From the NCBI GenBank assembly GCA_963697025.1, contig CAVOMM010000008.1, positions 263,741 to 327,740 on the forward strand: DNA of 64,000 nucleotides, read 5' to 3'. Positions within the stretch are counted from its first letter, which is position 1. Every line of letters starts with the position of its first letter. The notes under the pieces were generated by a model that did not search any database, was not told the origin of the DNA, and saw nothing but the letters and a program-made list of their open reading frames with translations. Below are positions 46,069-60,109 of the stretch, piece after piece. Source of the DNA: an uncultured Alphaproteobacteria bacterium. Lineage in GTDB: Bacteria > Pseudomonadota > Alphaproteobacteria > Rhizobiales > Xanthobacteraceae. The translations under genes were made by a program, and so were the position numbers.

Positions 46069-48039
46069 ATGTTCCGCTCCGTCCTCATCGCCAACCGCGG
46101 CGAAATCGCCTGCCGCATCGCGCGTACCGCCAAGCGCCTCGGGTTGCGCACGATCGCGGTCTATTCCACCGCGGACGCCGACGCGCTCCATGTGCGGTCA
46201 TGCGACGAGGCCCACTGCATCGGCGGCGCCGCGCCACGTGACAGCTATCTTTCGATCGAGAGCCTGATCGCGACGGCGCGCAAGGCCCGCGCCGAATGCA
46301 TCCATCCGGGCTACGGCTTTCTGTCCGAGAACGCCGACTTTGCCGAGGCTTGCGAAAAAGCCGGCATCGTCTTTGTCGGGCCGCCCGCGGCGGCCATTCG
46401 CGCCATGGGACTGAAGGACCGCGCTAAGACGCTCATGGAGAAGGCTGGCGTGCCGGTCGTGCCGGGGTTCCACGGCGAACGCCAGGACGCCAAATTCCTC
46501 AAGGAGAAGGCCTACGAGATCGGTTATCCGGTGCTGATCAAGCCGGTGACGGGCGGCGGCGGCCGCGGCATGCGCCGGGTCGACAAGCACGCCGATTTCG
46601 AGACTGCGCTCGAAGGCGCGATCCGCGAAAGCCAGTCGGCATTCGGCTCGGGCCGGGTTCTGATCGAAAAATTCATCGCCGCGCCGCGGCACATCGAAGT
46701 CCAGATCTTTGCCGACCGGCATGGCAATGCCATTCATCTCGGCGAACGCGACTGCTCGCTGCAGCGCCGACACCAGAAGGTGATCGAGGAAGCGCCGGCG
46801 CCGGGCATGACCGCGGAATTGCGCGCGCGGATCGGCGCAGCGGCGGTCGTGGCGGCCAAGGCGGTGGATTACCGCGGCGCCGGCACCGTCGAATTCGTTG
46901 CGGACGGCAGTGAAGGATTGCGGTCCGACGCCGTCTGGTTCATCGAAATGAATACCCGGCTGCAGGTGGAGCACCCGGTCACCGAGGCGGTCACCGGCCT
47001 CGATCTGGTCGAATGGCAATTGCGCATCGCCGCCGGCGAAAAGCTGCCGCTCCAGCAAGGGGAAGTCCGTATCGACGGCCATGCCGTCGAGGCGCGCGTC
47101 TATGCCGAGGATCCCGAGCATGGCTTCCTGCCGTCGACCGGTACGATCGTGGCGCTGGAACTGCCGCACGATATCCGCGTCGACGCGGGCGTCGAAGCCG
47201 GCGACCAAGTCACGCCCTTCTACGATCCGATGATTGCCAAGCTTATCGCGCAGGCGCCAACGCGGCAGGCCGCGCTCGACCGGCTTATGAAAGCGCTCGA
47301 CCGCACGGTGATTGCGGGCGTGCGCAACAACGTCGCCTTCCTCGCCAATTTATGCCGCGCCGACGAATTCCGCCGCGCCAATGTCGATACTGGCTTTATC
47401 GACGGCAATCTGGGGCGGCTCGGCGCCGCGCCGCAACCGCGCGACAATGCGGCCGCCGCGCTCGGTGTCGCGCATCTGCTCGACGACGCCACCTCGGACG
47501 AAGCGGCAAGCGACGACGACTCGGCGCAGGGCGAGTCACCCTGGGACAGCCGCGACGGCTTCCAGCTCGGCCGCGTGCGGTCGATTGCGATCCCGCTTGT
47601 GATCGACGGCGAGAATGTCGATGCCACCGTCACCTACGCGAAGGACGGCGCGCGCGTCGCTGTCGGAGGCGCTGAGCCGGCGACTGACGCCAGGGTATTT
47701 GCGGCGGGGCATGAGGCTTACGTCGTGCGCGGCGGCCGCCAAACCCGCGTTCAGATCCGCGATTTCGCCGCGCCGAGCGCGTCGGCGAGCGCCGGCGACG
47801 GGGTGATCAAGGCGCCGATGCACGGCAAGGTGTTGGAACTTCTCGCAAGTGTCGGCGATCGCGTCGATTTCGGTCAACGTCTTGCCGTGATCGAAGCGAT
47901 GAAGATGGAACACACGCTGCGCGCGCCGTTCGCCGGCACCGTGACGCAGGTTCCTGTGCGTAGCGGCGCCCAAGTTGTGGAAAGCGCGCCGGTCATGGTG
48001 TTAGAGCCGATCCCGGAAAGCCCGGACGACATAAAGTAG
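46069..48039 (+). CDS. Biotin-dependent acyl-CoA carboxylase alpha subunit (biotin carboxylase + BCCP; MccA/PccA-like)
   Basis: MFRSVLIANRGEIACRI, the ATP-grasp domain, and the C-terminal biotinyl-lysine motif EAMKMEH. Confidence 0.9.
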   Translation: MFRSVLIANRGEIACRIARTAKRLGLRTIAVYSTADADALHVRSCDEAHCIGGAAPRDSYLSIESLIATARKARAECIHPGYGFLSENADFAEACEKAGIVFVGPPAAAIRAMGLKDRAKTLMEKAGVPVVPGFHGERQDAKFLKEKAYEIGYPVLIKPVTGGGGRGMRRVDKHADFETALEGAIRESQSAFGSGRVLIEKFIAAPRHIEVQIFADRHGNAIHLGERDCSLQRRHQKVIEEAPAPGMTAELRARIGAAAVVAAKAVDYRGAGTVEFVADGSEGLRSDAVWFIEMNTRLQVEHPVTEAVTGLDLVEWQLRIAAGEKLPLQQGEVRIDGHAVEARVYAEDPEHGFLPSTGTIVALELPHDIRVDAGVEAGDQVTPFYDPMIAKLIAQAPTRQAALDRLMKALDRTVIAGVRNNVAFLANLCRADEFRRANVDTGFIDGNLGRLGAAPQPRDNAAAALGVAHLLDDATSDEAASDDDSAQGESPWDSRDGFQLGRVRSIAIPLVIDGENVDATVTYAKDGARVAVGGAEPATDARVFAAGHEAYVVRGGRQTRVQIRDFAAPSASASAGDGVIKAPMHGKVLELLASVGDRVDFGQRLAVIEAMKMEHTLRAPFAGTVTQVPVRSGAQVVESAPVMVLEPIPESPDDIK

Positions 48040-48043
48040 GATT

Positions 48044-48481
48044 ATGCCGCTTCACCTCATCAAGCTATGCGTCGGCTGCGACTCGGTTCGCGATCTTGAG
48101 GGCTGGATCAAGCAAAAGCTCAAGGCCAAGCGCAAAGCCGGCGAAAAACCCGAGCACATCCACCGCACCCGCATGGTGCCCAAGCGCGCCGCCGAGCTCA
48201 CCGACGGCGGTTCGCTCTATTGGGTGATCCGCGGCGAGGTCATGTGCCGGCAGCGCATTCGCGACGTGCGGCCGTTTCGCGACAAGGACGGCATCGGCCG
48301 CTGCGGTCTCGTGCTCGATCCCAAAGTGATCCTGGTCGAGCCGCGGCCTTATCGCGCATTCCAGGGCTGGCGCTACCTGGCGGCGAACGACGCCCCGCGC
48401 GACCTCGATAAGGCCGTGAAGGGCGCCGCCGCCATGCCGGAGACTATGCGCCGCGAATTGCGCGAACTCGGCCTGATGTGA
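48044..48481 (+). CDS. DUF1489 family protein
   Basis: MPLHLIKLCVGCDSVRDLEGW...GGSLYWVIRG....RQRI is typical of the family. Confidence 0.8.
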   Translation: MPLHLIKLCVGCDSVRDLEGWIKQKLKAKRKAGEKPEHIHRTRMVPKRAAELTDGGSLYWVIRGEVMCRQRIRDVRPFRDKDGIGRCGLVLDPKVILVEPRPYRAFQGWRYLAANDAPRDLDKAVKGAAAMPETMRRELRELGLM

Positions 48482-48587
48482 GCCGGCCGCCGGTCCGCGC
48501 CAGGTCCGCCAGGTCCGCCATGGCGCTCGCCAAAGCGATCACGTAAAATCCGCCCAGACCGAGATTATCCGGTTTGGAGCAATAAGA

Positions 48588-49529
48588 ATGATCATTGGCA
48601 GTGAGAAAGACGTCACCAAGGCGGTGCTCAAGGAATATGAGCGCATCAAAAATCCGCGGCTGCGCGAGATCGTGGCGGCGCTCGTCCGTCACCTGCACGA
48701 ATTCGCCCGCGAGCTGAAACTGACCGAGGAAGAATTCCAGGCCGCCGTCGCCTATATCGTCGCGCTCGGTAAGCGCACCACCGACACGCACAACGAAGCC
48801 GTACTGATGTCCGGCTCGCTCGGCTTTTCGACCCTGATCTGCCTTCTCAACAACGGCAATCGCGGCCAGACCGAGACCGACGCCAATCTGCTGGGGCCGT
48901 TCTGGCGCATGGATTCGCCGCCGACCAAGAACGGCGACACCATCATCCGCTCGCCGACGCCGGGGCCGGTGCTGTTCGTCGACGCCTGGTTCCGCGACAC
49001 CGCGGGCAAGCCGATCGTCGGCGCCGAGGTCGACATCTGGCATTCCTCGACCGAAGGTTTTTACGAGAACCAGGATCCGGTGCAGGCCGACATGAATCTG
49101 CGCGGCAAGTTTACCACCGACAAGGACGGCCATATCAGCTTTCGCAGCGTCAAGCCGGCGGGCTACCCGATCCCGATCGACGGCCCGGTCGGCGAATTGT
49201 TGCGCGCGGCGGGCCGGCACAATATGCGGCCCGCGCATCTGCACTTCCTCACCTACAAGCCGGGCTTCAAGACGCTGATCTCGCAAATCTACGATCCCGA
49301 GGACCAGAACATCGAGACCGACGTGCAGTTCGGCGTCACGCATCATCTGATCGGCAATTACCTCAAGCATGATGAACCCTGCCCGCACGCCGCCGACGTC
49401 AAGGCGCCGTGGTATTCGATCGAGCATACCTTCGTCATGGAAAGCGGCACCGCGCGCCTGCCGCGCCCGCCGATCACCGGCAAGGCGCAAGGGGAGCGGC
49501 CGGAGATCCCGCATCTCGAAGCGGTGTGA
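48588..49529 (+). CDS. Intradiol ring-cleavage dioxygenase (hydroxyquinol/catechol 1,2-dioxygenase-like)
   Basis: LGPFW, VDIWHSSTEGFYENQD, GYPIPIDGPVGELL, and RPAHLHF iron-ligand motifs. Confidence 0.85.
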   Translation: MIIGSEKDVTKAVLKEYERIKNPRLREIVAALVRHLHEFARELKLTEEEFQAAVAYIVALGKRTTDTHNEAVLMSGSLGFSTLICLLNNGNRGQTETDANLLGPFWRMDSPPTKNGDTIIRSPTPGPVLFVDAWFRDTAGKPIVGAEVDIWHSSTEGFYENQDPVQADMNLRGKFTTDKDGHISFRSVKPAGYPIPIDGPVGELLRAAGRHNMRPAHLHFLTYKPGFKTLISQIYDPEDQNIETDVQFGVTHHLIGNYLKHDEPCPHAADVKAPWYSIEHTFVMESGTARLPRPPITGKAQGERPEIPHLEAV

Positions 49530-49615
49530 GGCTCTTTCTCCCCGCGAGCTTGCACTCGGGCGCGCGCAAGCGCGACCCGGGTGGGGAGGGGAACAAATAA
49601 AAGGGGAGGACCATC

Positions 49616-50785
49616 ATGAAACGCCGAACACTGCTCAAAGGCATGGCCGCGACTGCGGCGAGCGGCATGCTCGTCCGCCGCGCGGCCGCCGACAGCGTCC
49701 TTAAGATCGGCATCAGCATGCCGATCACCGGCGCCGGCTTCAACGCGGTCGGGCGTCAGCTGCAGGCGGCGCTGAAGCTTTACATGGTGCAGCACGGCGA
49801 CACGGTCGCCGGCCGCAAGATCGAGCTGATCATCCGCGACGACGGCGGCGCCGCCGATACTGCGCACCGGCTGATCCAGGAAATGATCGTCAACGACAAG
49901 GTCGACGTGCTCGGCATCGGCATCACGCCGACCGCGCTCGCCATTGCGCCGCTGGCGACCGAGGCCAAGAAGGTGACGCTGGTGATGAGCTCCGGCGCCT
50001 CGATCACCACCGCCAAATGTCCGTATTTCGTGCGCGCCGGCTTTCTGCTCAGCCAGCAGTCGTGGATTCTCGCCGAATGGGCGGCGAAGAACGGCTCGAG
50101 CCATGTCGTCAGCCTGGTCAACGACTGGGCGCCCGGCATCGAGGCGGAGACCGCGTTCAAGACCCGCTTCACCCAGGTCGGCGGCACCATCGTCGAAGCC
50201 ATCCGGCTGCCGCTCGCCAATCCCGACTTCGCGCCGTTCCTGCAGCGCATCGCGGATCTGAAGCCGGACACCGCTTTCATTTATTTCCCCGGCACTCAGG
50301 CGCCGATCTTCGCTAAGCAATTTGCCGAGCGCGGACTTGCCAAAACCGGCATAAAAATCATCGGGCCGGGCGACCTGACCGACGACGACGGCCTCAATGC
50401 CATGGGCGATCAGATGCTCGGCATGATCACCGCCGGGCCTTACTCCGCCGCGCACAATTCGCCGCTCAACAAGACCTATGTCGCCGGCATCGAGCAGGCC
50501 GGCCACTTCCGGCCGGATTTCGTCTCGCTCGGCGGCTATGACGGCCTGCATCTGCTCTACGAGGCGCTGAAAAAGACCAACGGCAATTCCGACGGCGACG
50601 CACTGATCGCGGCGATGAAAGGCATGGCTTTCGAAAGCCCGCGGGGCCCGATCTCGATCGACGCCGCGACGCGCGACATCGTCAACAATATCTACATCCG
50701 CAAGGTCGAGAAGATCGACGGGCAGCTCTGGAACACCGAGTTCCAGACCTACCCGAACGTGAAAGACCCGATGAAGAGTGGGTGA
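49616..50785 (+). CDS. ABC transporter substrate-binding protein (LivK/branched-chain amino acid-type family)
   Basis: Tat/Sec-like signal MKRRTLLKGMAATAASG and the type I periplasmic binding fold pattern (KIGISMPITG...). Strong GGGGAGG RBS. Confidence 0.85.
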   Translation: MKRRTLLKGMAATAASGMLVRRAAADSVLKIGISMPITGAGFNAVGRQLQAALKLYMVQHGDTVAGRKIELIIRDDGGAADTAHRLIQEMIVNDKVDVLGIGITPTALAIAPLATEAKKVTLVMSSGASITTAKCPYFVRAGFLLSQQSWILAEWAAKNGSSHVVSLVNDWAPGIEAETAFKTRFTQVGGTIVEAIRLPLANPDFAPFLQRIADLKPDTAFIYFPGTQAPIFAKQFAERGLAKTGIKIIGPGDLTDDDGLNAMGDQMLGMITAGPYSAAHNSPLNKTYVAGIEQAGHFRPDFVSLGGYDGLHLLYEALKKTNGNSDGDALIAAMKGMAFESPRGPISIDAATRDIVNNIYIRKVEKIDGQLWNTEFQTYPNVKDPMKSG

Positions 50786-50858
50786 GAATCTTCCAGGGCG
50801 ATGCTCTGAGCGCCACGTCGTTTGAATCAACTTGGTCAGCCATTTGGCGCGTAGCGCA

Positions 50859-50897
50859 GCGTCGGATGATAGTCCTTCTTGGACTGTCATCCGACGC
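50859..50897. other. 17-bp-stem hairpin (GCGTCGGATGATAGTCC-TTCTT-GGACTGTCATCCGACGC) ending 4 nt before the first CRISPR repeat
   Basis: The inverted repeat has a single T/C difference, which is a G-U pair in plus-strand RNA. Followed by TTCC. Confidence 0.5.
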
Positions 50898-50901
50898 TTC
50901 C

Positions 50902-51728
50902 GTTGCGGTTGGCTCTCAATCACCAGACCGCTAAGCTACATCCGATTATGCCACAGCCATAGTCGTAGTTGCGGTTGGCTCTCAATCACCAGACCGCTAA
51001 GCTGTTCATCGTGAGGCCGTTGCTGCCGCCGTAGTTGCGGTTGGCTCTCAATCACCAGACCGCTAAGCTGTCAATGCGGCGTACCGGCTGCAAGGGATGG
51101 TTGCGGTTGGCTCTCAATCACCAGACCGCTAAGCTGCCTTCGACGAGATGAAAAGCGCGATCGAGGTTGCGGTTGGCTCTCAATCACCAGACCGCTAAGC
51201 TAAGAACTTCAAGCTGGGCATCCGCGACGGGGTTGCGGTTGGCTCTCAATCACCAGACCGCTAAGCTCCAACTCGTGTGCGAGGGCCTCCCGCAGATGTT
51301 GCGGTTGGCTCTCAATCACCAGACCGCTAAGCTACCAACACCCAGGCCCGCCTCCCCATCGGCGTTGCGGTTGGCTCTCAATCACCAGACCGCTAAGCTC
51401 ATAGCGCGTGCCGGGCGACTCTCGCCAGTGTTGCGGTTGGCTCTCAATCACCAGACCGCTAAGCTCTGGGCAATGAGGTCCACCATGCCGGCGTAGTTGC
51501 GGTTGGCTCTCAATCACCAGACCGCTAAGCTGACCGCTACGCCGCGCTCGAGTCCGACGTGGTTGCGGTTGGCTCTCAATCACCAGACCGCTAAGCTCGC
51601 CATCCAAGGCGCCGACGGTGGAACAGGGTTGCGGTTGGCTCTCAATCACCAGACCGCTAAGCTCGTTGGCACTGCACATGTTAGCGGATCCTGTTGCGGT
51701 TGGCTCTCAATCACCAGACCGCTAAGCT
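50902..51728 (+). CRISPR. CRISPR array: 13 identical 36-bp repeats GTTGCGGTTGGCTCTCAATCACCAGACCGCTAAGCT, 12 spacers (eleven 30 bp, one 29 bp)
   Basis: Repeats start at 50902, 50968, 51034, 51100, 51166, 51232, 51298, 51364, 51430, 51496, 51562, 51628 and 51693. The plus strand is assigned because the tracrRNA anti-repeat (plus strand, 56496-56516) is complementary to the plus-strand repeat sequence. Confidence 0.97.
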
Positions 51729-51740
51729 CTCTATCTGCTT

Positions 51741-51766
51741 AAGGCCCTGGAAACGGGGCCTTTTTT
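51741..51766 (+). terminator. Rho-independent terminator after the last CRISPR repeat (AAGGCCCTG-GAAA-CGGGGCCTT + T-run)
   Basis: 9-bp stem including one G-U, a GAAA tetraloop, and a TTTTTT tract. It is 12 nt downstream of repeat 13 and oriented to stop plus-strand array transcripts before cas2. Confidence 0.6.
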
Positions 51767-51801
51767 CTTGATTGAGAGTATGAGCGACAAGCGCGGTCAA
51801 G

Positions 51802-52158
51802 TCAGAATAGGGCAAATTGCTCTGGGTTTTTTGGGCTCCGTTCACGGTTTCGGCCACGGTAGGTGTGGATATTCTCATATTGCTTATCCGTGATCGCAAG
51901 GATGTGCACTTTGCCAGCACTCGGCATTGCCTCCTCGATCCTGCGTTCGTAACTCTCGGCCTGTTCCTTTCCCGCGCAAAAGCGCAAGTAGACCGAATAT
52001 TGCGTCATTTCAAAACCGAGATCGAGGAGCTTCAATCGAAAGCGCGTCGCCGCCTTCCGCTCCTTGGCGGACCCTACGGGCAGATCGAAGAATACGCAGA
52101 GCCACATGATTCGATAACCCGATAAGGCGGCCGGAGCACCATTGCCACGCGCAGCCAC
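51802..52158 (-). CDS. cas2: CRISPR-associated endoribonuclease Cas2 (type II)
   Basis: LSGYRIMWLCVFFDLPVGSAKERKAATRFRLKLLDLGFEMTQYSVYLRF. The proposed GTG 52158 lies 2 nt after the cas1 stop; the track start at 52257 overlaps cas1. Confidence 0.85.
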   Translation of the reverse strand: MAARGNGAPAALSGYRIMWLCVFFDLPVGSAKERKAATRFRLKLLDLGFEMTQYSVYLRFCAGKEQAESYERRIEEAMPSAGKVHILAITDKQYENIHTYRGRNRERSPKNPEQFALF

Positions 52159-52160
52159 TC

Positions 52161-53060
52161 TCAGAACCCAAGCGGAAGTCCGGCCCGCGGGAAAACAAGC
52201 CGACCGACCTCCCCCGCGTAAGCCTTGGCGAGCGAATTGGCGAGCCGATCGAGACACGTCATCAATGGGCTCATTCCCTCTTCCGCCGGTAGATCAATCA
52301 CCATGATACGAGCGAGCGCGGCCTTGGCCTCGGAGGTGACCTCGGTGAGACCTTGCTCCTTGAGCCTGTGAACTTCGCGATCGACCAGCGGACGGAAGGG
52401 CTCCATCAGGTCGTCGATTAGGACGAACGAGTTGCCGCGGTTGGCATGCATCAACCCGAGGCTGGGATGCAATCCTGCCGCCATAACCGCACGCGCCGTG
52501 GCAGCCCGCAAAATGGCATAGCCGTAGTTCAGCAGACCGTTGACGCCGCTGCCATCGGTGTCGCGGCGAAACTCCCGTCCGAAAAGCAGTGGCCAGTATC
52601 TTCGCGCCGCTTCCGCCTCGACGTTCTGCGGGTCGCCCGGTCGCACCTTTCGTGCAAGCAGGCGGAAACCGCCAGCCTCGGCGCCGACCGTGGCCAACGT
52701 GGCGCCTTGCGCCAGGATCTTTGCTTGCACGATCTGCTGCCAAAGGCGCTTTTTCAGCGGGGCACTCGCCCGCGCCTGGTCGCTCATGCGGCCGGCCTGA
52801 GCATGATGGCCGTCGACCGGCCAAACCAAGGCGGCCGGCCGATGATTGGGTCCGCACAGCACGACCGGCACGCCGCGCGCCGCTAGTGTCACCATGAGAT
52901 TGTTCGAGTAGGTCAGGCCGTGCGCATTCGCGACGACGGCGGCAAGGTCGTCGAGCGGTATCCGGCCGACCTCCGCACCCTTCTCGGCGATGGTCAAAAA
53001 ACCACGCTCAACGGCCAAGTGCCGTCCATCCGTTGCGACCTCGACAACGCGTCCGACCAT
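52161..53060 (-). CDS. cas1: CRISPR-associated endonuclease Cas1 (type II)
   Basis: 299 aa with NGLLNYGYAILRAATARAVMAAGLHPSLGLMHANRGNSFVLIDDLMEPFRPLVD, which covers the Cas1 catalytic-core region. Confidence 0.95.
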   Translation of the reverse strand: MVGRVVEVATDGRHLAVERGFLTIAEKGAEVGRIPLDDLAAVVANAHGLTYSNNLMVTLAARGVPVVLCGPNHRPAALVWPVDGHHAQAGRMSDQARASAPLKKRLWQQIVQAKILAQGATLATVGAEAGGFRLLARKVRPGDPQNVEAEAARRYWPLLFGREFRRDTDGSGVNGLLNYGYAILRAATARAVMAAGLHPSLGLMHANRGNSFVLIDDLMEPFRPLVDREVHRLKEQGLTEVTSEAKAALARIMVIDLPAEEGMSPLMTCLDRLANSLAKAYAGEVGRLVFPRAGLPLGF

Positions 53061-53144
53061 CGCGGCCTACGTCTGTTGCGTCCATCCGCGCATCCGCGCA
53101 GATTGGAAGGTTGCGGCGAAGTCAGGCCGCGAGCAACGATTGCG

Positions 53145-56100
53145 TTAGCCTTTGGTTAACGCCTCTGTCTGAATGCGCCACGGGCGGCCGAGTTCATCAA
53201 CGCGGACTGGGACCGCGCCCATAGCTTTGAGCGTGCCGTATGAGGCCATCAGCCAGCGGAACGGGTCGATCTCATTGTCCGTCGCGTGCCGGCGATCCAG
53301 ATTGCCAGTCTCGTTATGCGGTGCGAGTTTGAATTGTCGTGCCGCCGCGTCGAGACGGTGAACCACCATGATTTCGGTCTTGCCATCGTTCTCAAGCCGG
53401 ATGAGATCGCCTTTGTGGACACGCATGACAAGCTTGGCATGCGGTTGCTCCTGTCGCCAACGCGGTCCGTTGCCGATTTGGTTGGCGTCGAAACGACGCA
53501 CCGCCTCGCCGTTCCATCTTCCATCTGGCGTCTCAAATATCTCGATGCAAAAATTCTCGCCGGCTGAATAGGCTTTATATGGCGCACCGGTTCGCCGATC
53601 GCGCACTGCCACGAGATATTCGGCCTTCTCAGGTTTTAGCAAGCGCACCCGACGCAGGCCGTGCCTGATGTGCGGGTCGTCGGTCTTGGCGTGCAGCTTG
53701 CGCAACGCATCCGCAAGCGCAATGCCGTTGGCTTTTTCGGCAGTGACATGCGCATGCACCATGTCACGCAGCCGGCGGTCGCGAATGCGCCCGATCTCGT
53801 TCTCATTGAGCGCCTCGATGGGCTTTCGATAGACCAGGTTCGCACCCTCCATTTCCGGCTCCTTCACAAAACCGTAGGCGGTATCCTCGTGGAGTTTGCC
53901 CCCAATGCCATGGTCGGGCTTGTGCGAGACCACCATCCGTTCGAGAGCCGCCTTGAGGTCTTCGCGCAGCTTTTCCTTGTCCCAAGGCGTCGGTATTTCG
54001 ATCTTTTCCCGCTCGTCGTCATAGGCATTCGCCATCTTCCACAACAGCGAACGGTCGGTGAGCGCAGCCACCAAGCCGTCGATGGCATGATGGCGGTGAT
54101 CCGCGCGGTTCTTGACGCCGGAAAATTCCATGGCGTCGGTCGCCGCCAGAAAGTCTTCGGCTTTGTCCTGCACGCCGGCATAGTTATGGTCCGGCAAGAG
54201 GGAATTGAGACCCCACTTACCGCGGATCATCGACGTGAGCCGGCCCGGCACGACCCAGATGTTGTAGGGATTGGTTACAGCGCCGAGATATTGTTTGGCC
54301 AACCTTGCTAGCCATCCGGTCTCGTTGAGTTGGCGGTTGAGAAATCCGCCTCTTTTCTCAAACTGCTCGCGGGCGTCGGCATCGAAGCGCCAGCGCTTGT
54401 TCTTGGGCAGCAACGCCGCACGCGCGGCAATCTCGTCCCATCGGTAGGTAAAGCCATCGATCGTTGGGTTCGACCCGAACGCTTTGTAGGGCCACTGTTT
54501 ACGCTTGGCGCGGTTTGCATAGCGCATGCAGACCGTCTTGTTCGCCGCGCTGTCGTCGAGGCTTTCCTTGAACGGAGCCAGATGCTCGATTTCGACCTCG
54601 TCGGACATCAGTCGGGCAAGCCCGATCTGTTCGCCAGTGAATGGACACTTGCGATCGAGCGAATCCCGGGGATTTAATTCTTCCCACAATCGCATCTTGA
54701 GCATATTGCGCGGCGAAGCTGGCAGGCCATGCTCTGCAAGGTCCTTGGCGCGGGCCTCGTTTCTTTCCTGATTGCGCTGCTGTTGGCGCTGATACTCTAT
54801 TTTTTCTCGCGGAGACAGCTTGAGGGCGCGAGTAAATTCGATGGCGATTTCGGTTGGGGGACCGAAGTCGTCGATCAGGCCGTTGACCAGACGGCGGAGC
54901 TGGCCGAGCCCGATGTGGACTGTGGGATTTGGCAGCCGACCGAAGCGCTTCTCATTGGGTTCGCGTTTGTCGCCGCTGCCAACAACCGCGTCGGACAGCC
55001 ATTCACCGTAATAGGGCAACTTGTCGAGTATTTCGCCGGTCGGCAGCTTGGCGTGATCGCCGAATATTTCTGTGGCGGCTTCGTCGTAACGCAGGCCGCC
55101 TTCCATCAACGGCAGGAGCTTCTTGATGGCGCGCAGTCCGAGCCTGCAATGACCGTCTGGCAATGCCGCATCGGCGATTTTTTCGGCTCTCTCTGCATCG
55201 ACGTTGCATTTGCCTTTCAGCCACAGCGCCAGTTCGATTTCATCGGCCTCGTTGAGCAATTGCTCAATGATCGCGATCTGCCGTTCGACGTCAAGACCGC
55301 GCCAAGTTTTACCAAATAGCGCCTTGTGCGAGAGCCGTGCCGCGGTCTCGTCCCCATTGAGCACCTGGCGCCGCTCGGACTCCAGGTTGAATTTTGCTTC
55401 GGCGGGAAGTTTAAGGAGCGTTCGCAGCTTGTCGAATTTCACTTCCTTGTTCTGCAGCAAAGCGAGCGCGACAAGGTCGCCTTGCTCTTTTGTCAGTTTC
55501 CTCATTGTCCGGCCGGCTTGGCCGACTTCGAGATTGCGCGCCTCCTGATAGATACGGAAGCGCTGCGTGAGCGGATGCGCCCACGGGCATCGGTAGCCTT
55601 CCGGGTCTTTCTCGAACGGCTCCGTTGCCGGATCAAGTGAGCACTTTCCGACCGGCGGCTGTTTCAAGGGGCGTTGATAGAAGATGATTTTGCTTATCTG
55701 TTCTTCCGCGGCTTCCGTCATCGTGGGGTGGTGAGGCGCTTGCGCAGTCCAGATCGCGTCGAACTCGGATTGCAGCAGGTCGCGCGTCGGATAGAAGTCG
55801 TAGGTCGCCTTGGGACCGCTCGACGTGTTACGGGCGCGCACGCCTTCGCGCTTGCGGTGACGGTGCCACAGGAATTCTCCAAGCGTGCGAGCATTCTCAG
55901 CCTGCATCGCTTCCTTGAGCCTGCTTGCGCCCTGCTTGATCGCGCCTTTGTCGTCCTCCTTCTTGTCCGCCTTGCGATTGGAGAGGAAACCGCGGCGCTG
56001 ATTGAGATGGAAAAGTGTCCGCCCGATATGGTGAGCGGGTAGGGGACTATCGAGAGCGTTCGCGCGCAGCTCGTAGGGATCGAACGCCTCCAGCGCCTTT

Positions 56101-56411
56101 CGCTCTTTCGCGTCCTCCGGCATCAGACCATGACCGACGAGTGCATCCATCAATTCGGTGCGGCGGCCGAAATATCGATCAGCGAAACGGTCGCGGCGTC
56201 TGCGGGCACTTCGGGCGGTGCGGCGGTCGACGGCGTTCGACGTTCCCGATTGCGGGTCGCGCCCGTCGGGAAAGACGCGCACCCCACCGCGGCCGAGACT
56301 GGTCGGCCGCCAGTGATCGCCATTGCGTTCCAACAAAACCGTGAACCAACCGAGCGAGTTTGTCCCAAGGTCCAGGCCCAGACGATACGGTCGTGCCATA
56401 TTATGAGCCAT
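53145..56411 (-). CDS. cas9: Type II-C CRISPR-associated endonuclease Cas9 (1088 aa from ATG 56411)
   Basis: RuvC-I YRLGLDLGTNSLGW; Arg-rich bridge helix RRTARSARRRRDRFADR; RuvC-II EIAIEFTRAL; HNH EVEIEHLAPFKESLDDSAANKTVCMRYANRAKRKQWPY; RuvC-III DHRHHAIDGLVAAL. GAGGG RBS 5 nt before ATG 56411. Confidence 0.95.
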   Translation of the reverse strand: MAHNMARPYRLGLDLGTNSLGWFTVLLERNGDHWRPTSLGRGGVRVFPDGRDPQSGTSNAVDRRTARSARRRRDRFADRYFGRRTELMDALVGHGLMPEDAKERKALEAFDPYELRANALDSPLPAHHIGRTLFHLNQRRGFLSNRKADKKEDDKGAIKQGASRLKEAMQAENARTLGEFLWHRHRKREGVRARNTSSGPKATYDFYPTRDLLQSEFDAIWTAQAPHHPTMTEAAEEQISKIIFYQRPLKQPPVGKCSLDPATEPFEKDPEGYRCPWAHPLTQRFRIYQEARNLEVGQAGRTMRKLTKEQGDLVALALLQNKEVKFDKLRTLLKLPAEAKFNLESERRQVLNGDETAARLSHKALFGKTWRGLDVERQIAIIEQLLNEADEIELALWLKGKCNVDAERAEKIADAALPDGHCRLGLRAIKKLLPLMEGGLRYDEAATEIFGDHAKLPTGEILDKLPYYGEWLSDAVVGSGDKREPNEKRFGRLPNPTVHIGLGQLRRLVNGLIDDFGPPTEIAIEFTRALKLSPREKIEYQRQQQRNQERNEARAKDLAEHGLPASPRNMLKMRLWEELNPRDSLDRKCPFTGEQIGLARLMSDEVEIEHLAPFKESLDDSAANKTVCMRYANRAKRKQWPYKAFGSNPTIDGFTYRWDEIAARAALLPKNKRWRFDADAREQFEKRGGFLNRQLNETGWLARLAKQYLGAVTNPYNIWVVPGRLTSMIRGKWGLNSLLPDHNYAGVQDKAEDFLAATDAMEFSGVKNRADHRHHAIDGLVAALTDRSLLWKMANAYDDEREKIEIPTPWDKEKLREDLKAALERMVVSHKPDHGIGGKLHEDTAYGFVKEPEMEGANLVYRKPIEALNENEIGRIRDRRLRDMVHAHVTAEKANGIALADALRKLHAKTDDPHIRHGLRRVRLLKPEKAEYLVAVRDRRTGAPYKAYSAGENFCIEIFETPDGRWNGEAVRRFDANQIGNGPRWRQEQPHAKLVMRVHKGDLIRLENDGKTEIMVVHRLDAAARQFKLAPHNETGNLDRRHATDNEIDPFRWLMASYGTLKAMGAVPVRVDELGRPWRIQTEALTKG

Positions 56412-56479
56412 CGCAGCCCTCGTGCGAATTCTCGTTGACGAAGGCATCAAACCATCTCACACTTACTACGTGCAAGCGT

Positions 56480-56580
56480 CTCGGGAACCGAAAGACTTAG
56501 CGGTCTGGTGATTGAGGGCCTCCCGTTAACAAGCGAATGCACAAAATGGGGCGGGCTGCGGCCCGCCCCTTCCTATTTCG
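56480..56580 (+). ncRNA. Predicted tracrRNA (anti-repeat 56493-56530, terminator hairpin 56548-56569)
   Basis: CTTAGCGGTCTGGTGATTGAG (56496-56516) is the perfect reverse complement of repeat nt 14-34. Pairing continues with bulges to repeat nt 1 (..GGCCTCCCGTTAAC), followed by AAGCG.. and GGGGCGGGC-TGCG-GCCCGCCCC + TTCCTATTTCG. The 5' and 3' ends are not defined; an alternative 3' end lies at the weak hairpin + T5 at 56592-56616. Confidence 0.75.
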
Positions 56581-56644
56581 TTATCCGGTTTTGCGCCCGG
56601 ACACTCGCGCATTTTTCCCTGGGTTTCGCTTCGCTCAACCCAGG

Positions 56645-57439
56645 CTATGGAATGCTCACATTATCGATCAACCGCATCGTCCCGATCCGTGCCGCCACCA
56701 GAAGCCGGATCGGCTCAACCGCCGACGCGGCGAGCGGCGCGAGCGTCTCGGCGTTGCGGGCTTCGAGGTAATCTAGCGCGAAGCCGGCGCGGGTAATCGC
56801 TTCCCGGCCGTCGTCGAGCACGGCCTCGACCGGGCCCCCGGCCTTGATCCGCCCGGCGCACTCCTTGAGCACGCGATAAAGCGCCGGCGCCGCGGCGCGT
56901 TCGTCCGGCGTGAGGTAGCGGTTGCGCGACGACAGCGCCAGGCCGTCCTTTTCGCGCACGATCGGCGCAGCGACGATGCGGGTCTTTAGCCCCAGATCGC
57001 GGGCAAGCCGGGTGACCACTTTGAGCTGCTGGTAGTCTTTCTCGCCGAACAGCGCGATATCCGGTTCGCATTGGATCAAAAGTTTGGCGACCACGGTCGC
57101 CACGCCGGCGAAGAAATGCGGCCGGAAAGCGTCTTCGAGGCCGGCCGTGGCCGAGCCTTCGGGCACAATTCGGGTGGCAAAGCCTTCCGGGTACATGGTT
57201 TCGACCGACGGCGCCCAGACGAGGTCGGCCTTCAGCTCCTTGAGTGCGGCAAGGTCGGCGGACCAGGTGCGCGGATAGGTGCGCAAATCTTCGTTTGGCG
57301 CAAACTGCGTCGGGTTGACGAAGATCGAGACGATGACCCGGTCGGCGCGGGCTTGCGCGATCTTCACCAGCGCAAAATGGCCGGCGTGCAAGGCGCCCAT
57401 GGTCGGCACCAGCGCAATGCTGCGCCGCCGCGCGCGCAA
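56645..57439 (-). CDS. panC: Pantoate-beta-alanine ligase
   Basis: [32 protein letters not shown], and SSRN motifs. Only a TTG start at 57439 is in frame (see findings). Confidence 0.9.
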
Positions 57440-57660
57440 TTCGGCAATCGCGCGGCGTAAGTTCGGCGATGTGCGTATGACTCGGGGATGACTTTTGGAC
57501 TTTCCGTGATTTCATCTTTACCAGTTGCAGCGCGGGCACACCGTTGCGTTTTCGGCGACGCACGCGCGGTTAATGATTAACTTCGGCAAGCCGATGCTGT
57601 ATCTTGACCGCACACGTTGCAATCCGGAAAAATAGTTGCAGCGTAGGGGCCGCGTATCCC

Positions 57661-58584
57661 ATGTTGATGCAGGCTGATGTCGGCAGGCCGTCTTCGGCGC
57701 ATGTCATCGTCCTTGGCAACGAAAAAGGCGGCTCCGGCAAATCGACCACGGCCATGCATGTCGCCGTCGCGCTGCTGCAAGCCGGGCAGCGGGTCGCCAC
57801 CATAGACCTCAATTCGCGGCAGAAAAGCTTCACCCATTACATCGAAAATCGCCGCGATTGGGCGCGGCGCGGGGGCGTCAAGCTCGAGGTCCCGGCCCAT
57901 TATTGCGTCGCCCGCGGGTTCGGCGCGCGGCTCGACGAGATCGAAGCCCAGGAATTCGCGGCCTTTGCCGAGGCCATCGGCGCGGTCGAGCAAACCCATG
58001 ATTTCGTCGTTATCGATACGCCGGGCAACAATTCCTACCTGATGCGGCTTGCCCATTCGATGGCGGATACGCTGATCACGCCCTTGAACGACAGCTTTGT
58101 CGATTTCGACGTGCTCGGCACCATCGATCAGAGTACGTTCGAAGTGGCCGGAGTGAGCCATTACGCCGAGATGGTGCGCGAGGCGCGGCGGCAGCGCCGC
58201 CTCGTCGATGGCGGCCTTACCGACTGGATCGTGGTGCGCAACCGCCTCTCCAGCCTCGGCTCGCGCAACCGGCGGCTAGTCGGGGAGGGGGTTGAGGGCC
58301 TGGCCAGACAGCTCGGCTTCCGCGCCATCGAGGGCTTTGCCGAACGCGTTGTTTACCGGGAGTTCTTTCCCCGCGGCCTGACCGCGCTCGACGATTTGAA
58401 CGAAGATACCCTCGGCGCGCGGCCCTCGACGTCGCACGTCACCGCCCGCGACGAGGTGAAGATGCTGATCGACGCGCTGCGGCTACCGATCGATGAACGC
58501 GGCAAGCGCCGCGCCGCGGCCCGCGCCGAGTGGATCGCTGCCGCGGGCAAGCCGCTCGAGACCCACGATCTGTTGGCCGATTGA
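57661..58584 (+). CDS. mipZ: Division-plane positioning ATPase MipZ (ParA/MinD superfamily)
   Basis: HVIVLGNEKGGSGKSTTAMHVAVALL..G.RVATIDLNSRQKSFTHYIENRR.W...IDTPG......RLAHSMADTLITPLNDSFVDFDVLG closely follows the Caulobacter MipZ pattern. Divergent from panC. Confidence 0.85.
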   Translation: MLMQADVGRPSSAHVIVLGNEKGGSGKSTTAMHVAVALLQAGQRVATIDLNSRQKSFTHYIENRRDWARRGGVKLEVPAHYCVARGFGARLDEIEAQEFAAFAEAIGAVEQTHDFVVIDTPGNNSYLMRLAHSMADTLITPLNDSFVDFDVLGTIDQSTFEVAGVSHYAEMVREARRQRRLVDGGLTDWIVVRNRLSSLGSRNRRLVGEGVEGLARQLGFRAIEGFAERVVYREFFPRGLTALDDLNEDTLGARPSTSHVTARDEVKMLIDALRLPIDERGKRRAAARAEWIAAAGKPLETHDLLAD

Positions 58585-58651
58585 GGCCATTGCGCGGCCT
58601 GCGGTCCAGCGCCACCTTAGGACCGGTTCGTACGGCTTTAAGGTCCCTTCG

Positions 58652-59383
58652 ATGAGCAAAGACCGCGCGCCGGCGCCAACGCGCAATCCGGCCGAGCCCT
58701 CGGCAGCATCCGGCCGCGCGGAAATCGATCAGTTTCTGCAACGCGTCAAGGCGCTCGACCCGGCGGTCGAGTCTGGCCAGCGCGGCCGGCTGATTTTCGC
58801 CCTCGATGCCACTATGAGCCGGCAGCCGACCTGGGACAGCGCCTGCCGGCTGCAGGCCGACATGTTTCGCGAAGCGGCCGCCGCCGGCGGGCTCGATGTC
58901 CAGCTCGTCTATTATCGCGGCCTGGCGGAATGCCGCGCCTCGCCATGGGTCGCCGAGGCGAAGCGGCTCGGCGCGCTGATGGAGCACATCGATTGCCGCG
59001 GCGGCCATACTCAGATCGCCAAGGTGCTCGCCCATGCGCGGCGGGAAAACGATGCCCGCAAGGTCGCGGTGCTGGTTTTCATTGGCGACGCCATGGAGGA
59101 ATCGCTCGACGATCTCTGCGCGGCCGCCGGCGAACTGGGCCTGCGCAACGTCAAGGCATTCATGTTCCAGGAAGGCTCCGATCCGGTCTGCGAGCAGGCG
59201 TTTCGCGAAATTGCCCGCCTGACCGGTGGCGCGTTCTGCCGCTTCGCACCAGGCGCCGCGCACGAACTGGCCGAGCTGTTGCGCGCCGCGGCGGCCTATG
59301 CCGCCGGCGGCATGAAAGCGCTCACGGCGCTCAAAGCGCGACAAAGCTCGGGCGCGGTCTTGCTGCTTGAGCAGATGAAATAG
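58652..59383 (+). CDS. VWA domain-containing protein
   Basis: MIDAS-like LIFALDATMSRQ, ...GGHTQIAKVL..., and VLVFIGDAMEE. ATG 58652. Confidence 0.6.
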   Translation: MSKDRAPAPTRNPAEPSAASGRAEIDQFLQRVKALDPAVESGQRGRLIFALDATMSRQPTWDSACRLQADMFREAAAAGGLDVQLVYYRGLAECRASPWVAEAKRLGALMEHIDCRGGHTQIAKVLAHARRENDARKVAVLVFIGDAMEESLDDLCAAAGELGLRNVKAFMFQEGSDPVCEQAFREIARLTGGAFCRFAPGAAHELAELLRAAAAYAAGGMKALTALKARQSSGAVLLLEQMK

Positions 59384-59401
59384 CCGAGCTGCGAAGAAGC
59401 C

Positions 59402-60109
59402 ATGCCCGAAATTCTTCTCGGCGTTATCGTGCTCGTGCTCGGTCTATGGGCGGTCAATTCCTTCTCCAAGGCCGACCCCAAACAGGCGGCGCGGGTGCTG
59501 CGCGCCATCGGCGGCGCGGCGGCGCTGATCTTTGCCGGATTTCTGCTGCTGCGCGGCGAGATCGGCGTGGCCGTGACGGTCGGCCTGTTCGGCCTCGGCC
59601 TGCTCGGCTACGTGACGCTGTGGCCGGCGACTTTGGGCGCGCGCACGCAGAAAAGCGCCGGCCAGGCCTCGCGCGTGCGTACCGACTATCTCGAAATGGA
59701 GCTCGACCACGACAGCGGCGCCATGCATGGCCGCATTCTTAAGGGTCGGCTTGCCGGCACGGCGCTCGACAGCCTCGACCGCGCGGCGCTGATTAATCTG
59801 TTGGGCGAGATCGACGCCGACAGCCGCGATCTACTTGCAGCTTATCTTGACCGCCGGGCGCCCGGCTGGCGTGAGCACGCGCAAGGCGATGCGGGTGCGA
59901 GCGGCGGGCCGCGGCCGTCGTCCGGCGGCAAAATGACTGAAGAGGAAGCTTATCAGATCCTTGGCATTCAGCCCGGGGCGAGCGCGCAGGACATCAGTCG
60001 CGCCCACCGCTCCCTCATGAAGAAACTGCATCCCGACCAAGGGGGGACGACGTATCTTGCGGCCCGCGTCAATGAGGCCAAGGACGTTCTTCTGCGCCGC
60101 CATCGCTGA
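59402..60109 (+). CDS. Membrane-anchored J-domain protein (DnaJ-like)
   Basis: N-terminal TM helices and a C-terminal J domain (EEEAYQILGIQPGASAQDISRAHRSLMKKLHPDQGG). Confidence 0.8.
   Translation: MPEILLGVIVLVLGLWAVNSFSKADPKQAARVLRAIGGAAALIFAGFLLLRGEIGVAVTVGLFGLGLLGYVTLWPATLGARTQKSAGQASRVRTDYLEMELDHDSGAMHGRILKGRLAGTALDSLDRAALINLLGEIDADSRDLLAAYLDRRAPGWREHAQGDAGASGGPRPSSGGKMTEEEAYQILGIQPGASAQDISRAHRSLMKKLHPDQGGTTYLAARVNEAKDVLLRRHR

Follow-up and report, generated by a model that had tools for sequence, protein, structure and literature searches.

Organization of the locus

The window, a stretch of 64 kb, harbors a complete type II-C CRISPR-Cas9 locus with cas9, cas1, cas2 and a CRISPR array. 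This raises the question whether the segment between cas9 and panC encodes the tracrRNA of the system and, if so, where this RNA starts and ends and how it pairs with the crRNAs. Comparative sequence analysis makes it very probable that positions 56470–56579 of the plus strand encode the tracrRNA. The array and the cas genes are arranged as follows:

50902–51728, predicted crRNA sense plus: CRISPR array of 13 identical repeats of 36 nt, with 12 spacers of 30 nt
51802–52257, minus strand: open reading frame of cas2 (Pfam CRISPR_Cas2, E 7.5e-17)
52161–53060, minus strand: cas1 (Pfam Cas_Cas1, E 2e-29)
53145–56411, minus strand: cas9, 1088 aa, type II-C (Pfam RuvC_III and HNH_4 above, Cas9_a below the curated cut-off)

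Read on the plus strand, all 13 copies of the array repeat have the sequence GTTGCGGTTGGCTCTCAATCACCAGACCGCTAAGCT. The Cas2 domain comprises aa 51–129 of its open reading frame, and the real start of cas2 probably lies further inside. The start codon of cas9 is ATG 56411, which results in a protein of 1088 aa, the same length as the database copy P0001. Two in-frame ATGs, at 56411 and 56399, give MAHNMARPYRLGLDLG, and the one at 56411 is preceded by the Shine-Dalgarno sequence GAGGG, 5 nt upstream. Homologues named Cas9 or Csn1 display 60–89% identity, the nearest named relatives being found in Xanthobacteraceae (87%), Rhodopseudomonas (67%) and Nitrobacter (63%). Upstream of cas9, panC is located on the minus strand and ends at 56645.

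Directly 5′ of the first repeat, a perfect 18-bp hairpin can be observed (50856–50900, fold z-score −7.3). In the minimum free energy (MFE) fold of this region, an outer helix joins CGUAGCG to GUUGCG, the 5′ end of the first repeat. Hairpins and terminators of type II-C arrays have been reported to suppress ‘extraneous’ crRNA (PMC12080349), and the hairpin at 50856–50900 fits such suppressors. Comparison of the 12 spacers with 50,697 phage records gave no match, and hence no protospacer evidence on PAM or orientation.

Pairing of the anti-repeat with the repeat

The element that connects the segment upstream of cas9 to the array is an anti-repeat:

56493–56530, plus strand: anti-repeat, pairs with repeat nt 36–1

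Its core is the 21-mer 56496–56516 (CTTAGCGGTCTGGTGATTGAG), the exact reverse complement of repeat nt 14–34. Allowing up to 3 mismatches, this 21-mer matches only the 13 repeats, in minus sense, and 56496–56516 itself in the 64-kb window, with 0 matches expected by chance. The perfect complement described in the original prediction is thus confirmed and unique within 64 kb; it is the sole repeat match outside the array and lies in the opposite orientation to the repeats.

RNAcofold, applied to the repeat and 56480–56580, yields a duplex of about −85 to −89 kcal/mol. It reproduces exactly the bulged duplex that had been proposed from the letters, with pairing extended downstream to repeat nt 13–1 and upstream, via AG(A)C, to nt 35–36. 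At the 5′ end, A56493 forms a pair with repeat nt 36 and G56494 with nt 35, while A56495 is bulged out. The 21 perfect pairs of the core are followed by GGCC, which pairs with repeat nt 13–10 and includes one G-U. After a 2×2 internal loop (UC / UU), CCG contacts repeat nt 7–5, and behind a single bulged U the duplex is closed by UAAC, paired with repeat nt 4–1 and again including one G-U. The upper part of the duplex accordingly has 27 pairs; below the 2×2 loop, a single bulged base separates 3 pairs from 4 further pairs. The first base of the anti-repeat is situated 82 nt from the cas9 ATG, in agreement with the claim that the gene begins less than 100 bp from this codon on the other strand.

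The G-U of the upper duplex involves 50914 (repeat nt 13) and 56517. At this repeat position the window and its near-identical relative, locus L001, have T13, and close relatives have C13. The upper duplex holds this single G-U because repeat nt 13 changed from C to T in the lineage of the window and L001, with the G of the anti-repeat unchanged. Since the anti-repeat keeps G opposite repeat nt 13, the transition in the repeat preserves pairing.

Conservation of the element in related loci

For comparison, 80 loci encoding Cas9 proteins 38–87% identical to that of the window were fetched. In all array-containing loci, the best repeat-like match outside the array is found 80–450 nt upstream of cas9, inverted relative to the repeats. 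On the strand opposite to cas9 these loci share a common layout: the anti-repeat is followed by CCGTTAACAAG and by a short and variable stem-loop, after which a linker of the form CAC(A/C)A(A/G)AT leads to a GC-rich hairpin whose loop is of the UNCG type. The layout is completed by a T-rich tail, which in AT-richer genomes turns into a clean T-tract. The sequence flanking the element is unrelated from locus to locus. The corresponding parts of the window are:

56531–56547, plus strand: AAG junction, stem-loop 1 and linker ACAAAAU, with near-invariant motifs and covariation
56548–56569, plus strand: terminal GC-rich hairpin of 9 G-C pairs with the loop UGCG, followed by TTCCTATTTC
56570–56579, plus strand: U-containing tail UUCCUAUUUC, predicted 3′ end

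The junction motif CCGUUAACAAG (56523–56533) shows little or no variation among 54 aligned sequences and the published RNAs of Sdo and Ghh1. Within the same 54 sequences, the motif GTTAACAAG (56525–56533) and the sequence CAC..A.AT are near-invariant. Both stems are predicted by RNAalifold on this alignment. Over all 13 pairs, 92.4% of the cells are paired, as compared with 68.6% in shuffled alignments and 41–55% with slid partners, and the two stems together show 152 double-sided changes versus 40 in shuffles. In the terminal hairpin such changes affect 9 of the 10 pairs of the consensus helix; in stem-loop 1 the pair counts are CG 35, UG 8, GC 4 and AU 3. In the window, stem-loop 1 is formed by two base pairs, G56533–C56540 and C56534–G56539, which enclose the loop GAAU. 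The proposed likeness to the nexus and terminator part of tracrRNAs is hence borne out by the covariation of both stems, although the ‘nexus’ amounts to a minimal 2-bp stem with a GAAU loop.

Repeat and anti-repeat also match each other locus by locus. When compared with repeats differing at 8 or more positions, the repeat of the own locus is the most stable partner of the anti-repeat in 47 of 48 loci (mean z −5.4).

A covariance model, R1, was built from 44 loci with the window and L001 left out. In the 64-kb window R1 gives one strong match, which spans the full length of the model at 56489–56579 on the plus strand (80.6 bits, E 7.6e-17); on the minus strand it recognizes the hairpin only (14 bits). 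Among the 80 loci, 76 yield a single match, which in each case lies on the strand opposite to cas9 and upstream of this gene; in the four loci lacking a match, the sequence available upstream of the cas9 match does not exceed 105 nt. Moreover, L001, with a Cas9 87% identical to that of the window, matches the block 56482–56575 (94 nt) at 100% identity, whereas both flanks have diverged. Taken together, the R1 match, the covarying stems, the preference for the own repeat in 47/48 loci and the constant position in 76/76 loci support the original reading of a tracrRNA divergent from cas9. A search of 48000–60000 with Rfam 15, which includes a Streptococcus-type tracrRNA model, returned at E up to 1 only a chance miRNA match elsewhere; this shows only that the tracrRNA class of the window has no Rfam model.

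Terminal hairpin and predicted 3′ end

The hairpin 56548–56569 is predicted to act both as a Cas9-binding stem-loop and as an intrinsic terminator. Its U-tail is interrupted by CC, and in AT-richer relatives clean U-tracts occupy the position of this tail on the same strand. The predicted 3′ end of the tracrRNA lies at about 56575–56580, after this first hairpin, because the covariance-model match, the identity to L001 and the metatranscriptome matches described below all stop within 56573–56579: the model match ends at 56579, and L001 and all metatranscriptome contigs depart from the window at 56573–56575.

A longer primary transcript, which either reads through to a second hairpin followed by T5 (56592–56616) or starts upstream of 56470, is considered quite unlikely. 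Read-through would be compatible with the U-poor tail UUCCUAUUUC behind the first hairpin and with the T5 run behind the second, and several metatranscriptome contigs of relatives extend beyond the terminator or further upstream than the predicted start. However, these contigs are unstranded and possibly derived from DNA, and the model match as well as all sequence conservation end at 56573–56579. Furthermore, the second hairpin is absent from the closest relative, L001, and conserved in none of the relatives. Of the two ends envisaged in the original prediction, conservation favors the one at about 56580 and speaks against the one after 56592–56616.

The segment 56580–56644, which separates the tracrRNA terminator from the panC stop codon by about 60 nt, is missing from L001 as a whole. 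Besides the weak hairpin with its T5 run, it contains an 8-bp palindrome (CCTGGGTT...AACCCAGG, 56618–56644) that is unique in the window. Fragments resembling 56613–56647 occur in two metatranscriptomes (X45 and X51). The segment may represent a small mobile or repeated element.

The GC-rich hairpin 56548–56569 is terminator-like on both strands; on the minus strand its tail reads ATTTTGTG and is complementary to the conserved linker ACAAAAU. The hairpin could thus also stop read-through from panC, which would otherwise run antisense across the tracrRNA into cas9.

Predicted promoter, transcription start and the intergenic region shared with cas9

Between the cas9 ATG and the anti-repeat, the following elements are predicted:

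56435–56440, plus strand: −35 box TTGACG of the tracrRNA
56458–56463, plus strand: −10 box CACACT, 17 nt after the −35 box
56470–56492, plus strand: predicted start and 5′ leader

The original prediction had named TTGACG but regarded it as lacking a convincing −10. This has to be revised, as CACACT is found 17 nt further on and is conserved in relatives. TTGACN is located at the equivalent place in 12 of the 12 closest relatives, followed after 17–18 nt by CACAAT, CACACT, CACAGT, GACAAT or a similar hexamer in which A2 and T6 are kept, while the sequence of the spacer between the two boxes is not conserved. The strict pattern TTGACN-N16-18-NANNNT occurs in 34 of 55 loci versus 1.4% of shuffles. 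CACACT agrees with the consensus at 3 of 6 positions and falls below the threshold in a generic promoter scan. Hence the predicted −10 box is weak by consensus and phylogenetically conserved.

From the geometry of the promoter, the start is predicted at about 56470, the G of the conserved GTGCAA (56470–56475). This motif is kept in eight close relatives, in which the adjacent bases are not, and the metatranscriptome contig X47 ends at it. The 5′ leader contains a small hairpin, UCGG-GAA-CCGA (56481–56491). With an end at about 56577, the tracrRNA would have a length of about 105–110 nt.

The distance from the predicted tracrRNA start to the cas9 ATG is 58 nt, and the −35 box of the tracrRNA lies 24 nt from this ATG, so that the cas9 promoter must overlap the tracrRNA promoter. 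A weighted scan of the minus strand points to TTGCAC (56475–56470), an 18-nt spacer and TTTGAT (56451–56446) as candidate cas9 promoter. TTGCAC is the complement of the conserved GTGCAA, and the candidate −10 TTTGAT lies inside the spacer of the tracrRNA promoter. Counterparts are found in L001, L002, L005, L007 and L056, most of their −10 hexamers being devoid of the key A2. The cas9 promoter proposed by the generic scan, TTCGCA-17-CATAAT, overlaps the start codons, is incompatible with ATG 56411 and is probably spurious.

In the MFE fold of the tracrRNA, the 5′ GUGCA pairs with UGCAC at 56538–56542. GTGCAA could have a role as initial transcribed sequence, as cas9 −35 box (TTGCAC) or as partner of UGCAC 56538–56542. 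It is a rather doubtful proposal that the tracrRNA and cas9 promoters are functionally interdigitated, or that the pairing of 5′ GUGCA with UGCAC keeps the free tracrRNA closed. If true, interdigitated promoters would admit RNA polymerase on one at a time and thereby couple the levels of Cas9 and tracrRNA, and either promoter interdigitation or closure by GUGCA would represent a regulatory layer undescribed for type II-C systems.

Direction of array transcription

Three independent lines point to the plus strand as the sense of the crRNAs, since the terminator and T-tracts of the tracrRNA, a terminator behind the array and the −10 signature of the repeat all lie on the plus-strand side. The second of these is:

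51741–51770, plus strand: post-array intrinsic terminator, 9-bp stem (51741–51762) followed by TTTTCTTGAT

This terminator separates the last repeat from the cas2 end and would stop transcription of the array before it runs antisense into cas2. With regard to the repeat, T31 and A32 are invariant among the 39 distinct repeats of the Cas9 clade and T36 is found in 90%, whereas nt 33–35 are free. Repeat nt 31–36 thus carry a −10 signature (TAnnnT), and yTGGmC is located 17 nt upstream. The repeat-embedded promoter does not reach the threshold of 9 of 12 matches in a generic sigma-70 scan, its support being the family-wide TAnnnT signature. By analogy with Neisseria meningitidis and in view of the −10 signature, crRNAs are probably transcribed from promoters embedded in each repeat.

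In the reverse arrangement, the array would be transcribed from the minus strand together with the cas operon, and 56516–56496 would give rise to the functional anti-repeat RNA as a minus-strand transcript in the cas9 5′ UTR. Complementarity alone is symmetric, and Chylinski et al. 2013 assumed co-directional transcription by default for systems lacking validation. Nevertheless, this arrangement is highly improbable. Between the anti-repeat and cas9, the minus strand shows no conserved structure or terminator, and the covariance model scores nothing but the hairpin on this strand; the conserved stem-loop and the U-tracts are located on the plus-strand side in 76 loci. Likewise, the repeats start with GUUG and display their −10 signature in plus sense, the post-array terminator is a plus-strand terminator, and the validated Sdo, Ghh1 and EH guides have the plus-equivalent orientation.

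That the element is an inert remnant, in which a decayed inverted repeat copy happens to lie beside a panC terminator hairpin without any RNA function, is barely credible: on the minus strand the hairpin does resemble a terminator and is located downstream of panC, but the composite element recurs in 76 of 76 related loci between flanks that are unrelated from one locus to the next, repeat and anti-repeat co-evolve, the stems covary, and a perfectly conserved 94-nt block stands between diverged flanks.

Matches in sequencing runs

No sequencing run was found to contain the locus of this organism; the best candidate, a run of soil DNA, included 28% of the words. Run searches for the relatives Nitrobacter winogradskyi (L004) and Azospirillum brasilense (L050) returned uninformative metagenome contigs only. 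With a 118-nt tracrRNA query, 14 metatranscriptome runs were obtained that contain 43–100% of 7 sampled words, and the contigs of 12 of them were compared with the window. Contigs of all 12 assemblies match the window at 99% identity or more, from 56481/84 to 56573/74, and then continue into flanks unlike the window. Because of these flanks, the contigs are assigned to relatives.

In four runs, analyzed at 80% likeness, cas9 is essentially uncovered and the tracrRNA block reaches a word depth of 5–20, which is suggestive of an origin from RNA rather than from DNA carry-over. Two contigs, X53 and X56, show the Illumina read-2 adapter directly after plus-strand positions 56538 and 56536, respectively. 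Provided that the libraries were dUTP-stranded, these adapters would hint at plus-strand RNA. Overall, the metatranscriptome contigs are unstranded unitigs, several of which extend over the promoter or past the terminator, and DNA carry-over is possible. They were rejected as a source of transcript ends, being unstranded unitigs that run into unlike flanks.

Comparison with characterized systems

In type II-A and II-C systems anti-repeats are found mostly upstream of cas9 (Chylinski et al. 2013). The closest experimental counterparts of the window RNA belong to clade IX of type II-C, namely those of Sulfitobacter donghicola (Sdo) and Ghh1, for which repeats, tracrRNAs and working sgRNAs have been described (Gasiunas et al. 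2020, PMC7606464, supplementary file 4). SgRNAs of the Sdo/Ghh1 type cleave DNA in vitro (PMC7606464). The modules of both tracrRNAs align one by one with 56493–56580. As in the window, the 36-nt repeat starts with GUUGCGG and the anti-repeat ends with CCGUUAACAAG, followed by a short stem-loop, a linker of the form GCAC(A/C)A.AU, a GC-rich hairpin whose loop is of the UNCG type, and finally a U tail. In contrast, the sequence of the upper stem differs, following the repeat as expected, and stem-loop 1 has 4–5 bp in Sdo and Ghh1 versus 2 bp in the window. In addition, Ghh1 possesses an extra hairpin. The Cas9 proteins of loci with Sdo-like (L074, L079) or Ghh1-like (L020, L034) tracrRNAs are 38–43% identical to the window Cas9, those of L074 and L079 only about 39–41%. 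Judged by sequence, the window RNA is an ordinary, typical member of a tracrRNA class already validated in related bacteria.

EHCas9 derives from a metagenomic, alphaproteobacterial-like type II-C locus that is active in E. coli and as sgRNA (Esquerra-Ruvira et al. 2023, PMC10281378). Repeat-embedded promoters, as in N. meningitidis, have been invoked for this system as well (PMC10281378). The guide-RNA modules and the general layout of the EH locus agree with those of the window. It shares the order cas9-cas1-cas2-array with the window, its repeat starts with GCTGCGGCTGGACC, and its array is inferred to be transcribed in the direction of the tracrRNA, as proposed for the window. It differs in its Cas9 (1070 aa) and in its repeat, and the tracrRNAs were compared at primer-derived ends only.

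The type II-C array of N. meningitidis is reportedly transcribed opposite to the cas genes. Its repeat is said to start with GUUG and to end with a −10-like TAnnnT, so that each repeat can be a promoter, and its guide is described as a bulged repeat:anti-repeat duplex followed by two 3′ stem-loops. Unlike in the window, the tracrRNA gene reportedly lies between cas9 and cas1 and not upstream of cas9, and the nexus and terminal hairpins are said to be longer and of different sequence.

In Streptococcus pyogenes, the tracrRNA gene is located upstream of cas9 on the opposite strand, with neighbouring promoters as in the window; this system is of type II-A and its scaffold sequence is unrelated to that of the window. 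A long form of the S. pyogenes RNA, tracr-L, reportedly represses the cas9 promoter. For the window, a natural single guide resembling tracr-L was rejected, as no repeat-like segment is found from cas9 to the anti-repeat (score 10, p 0.95) and the MFE fold contains no fold-back.

Proposed mode of action

Transcription of the tracrRNA would be driven by a sigma-70-type promoter of its own (TTGACG, 17 nt, CACACT), start at about 56470, run away from cas9 and stop at the GC-rich hairpin and U-tail at about 56575–56580. The computed pairing would engage the anti-repeat 56493–56530 with the repeat part of plus-strand crRNAs. Judging from validated relatives, RNase III is likely to act on the upper duplex of 27 bp, and Cas9 would bind a scaffold that extends from the bulged lower stem and the GUUAACAAG junction through the minimal stem-loop and the ACAAAAU linker to the terminal hairpin. 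The resulting crRNA:tracrRNA:Cas9 complex would cleave matching DNA, as it does in these relatives.

Together with Cas9 and the crRNA repeat, a tracrRNA with predicted ends and promoter completes the parts list of an uncharacterised alphaproteobacterial type II-C system. This permits the design of an sgRNA of the form N22-24 + GUUGCGGUUGGCUCUCAA + GAAA + UUGAGGGCCUCCCGUUAACAAGCGAAUGCACAAAAUGGGGCGGGCUGCGGCCCGCCCCUUCCUAUUU. The picture gained from 76 loci, with fixed position, conserved promoter, covarying stems and the −10 signature of the repeat, is reusable for the annotation of relatives. The understanding of how Cas9 systems work is left unchanged by the finding.

Repeat remnants near tracrRNA genes

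Derivation of the window's tracrRNA promoter from a decayed sense repeat was considered and rejected (score 10, p 0.95), a remnant of this kind being present in about nine relatives. In L004, L005, L011, L026, L040, L046, L052, L064 and L074, an orphan degenerate repeat in crRNA sense is situated between cas9 and the tracrRNA. The intergenic regions between the two genes are long in these relatives, and the orphan repeat of L005, GTTGCGGTTGGCCCTCATCA, may serve as an example. L064 contains a second repeat-like copy, which provides the promoter of the tracrRNA (TTGACC...TATCAT). The orphan repeats of these relatives are possibly a trace of the origin of the tracrRNA gene.
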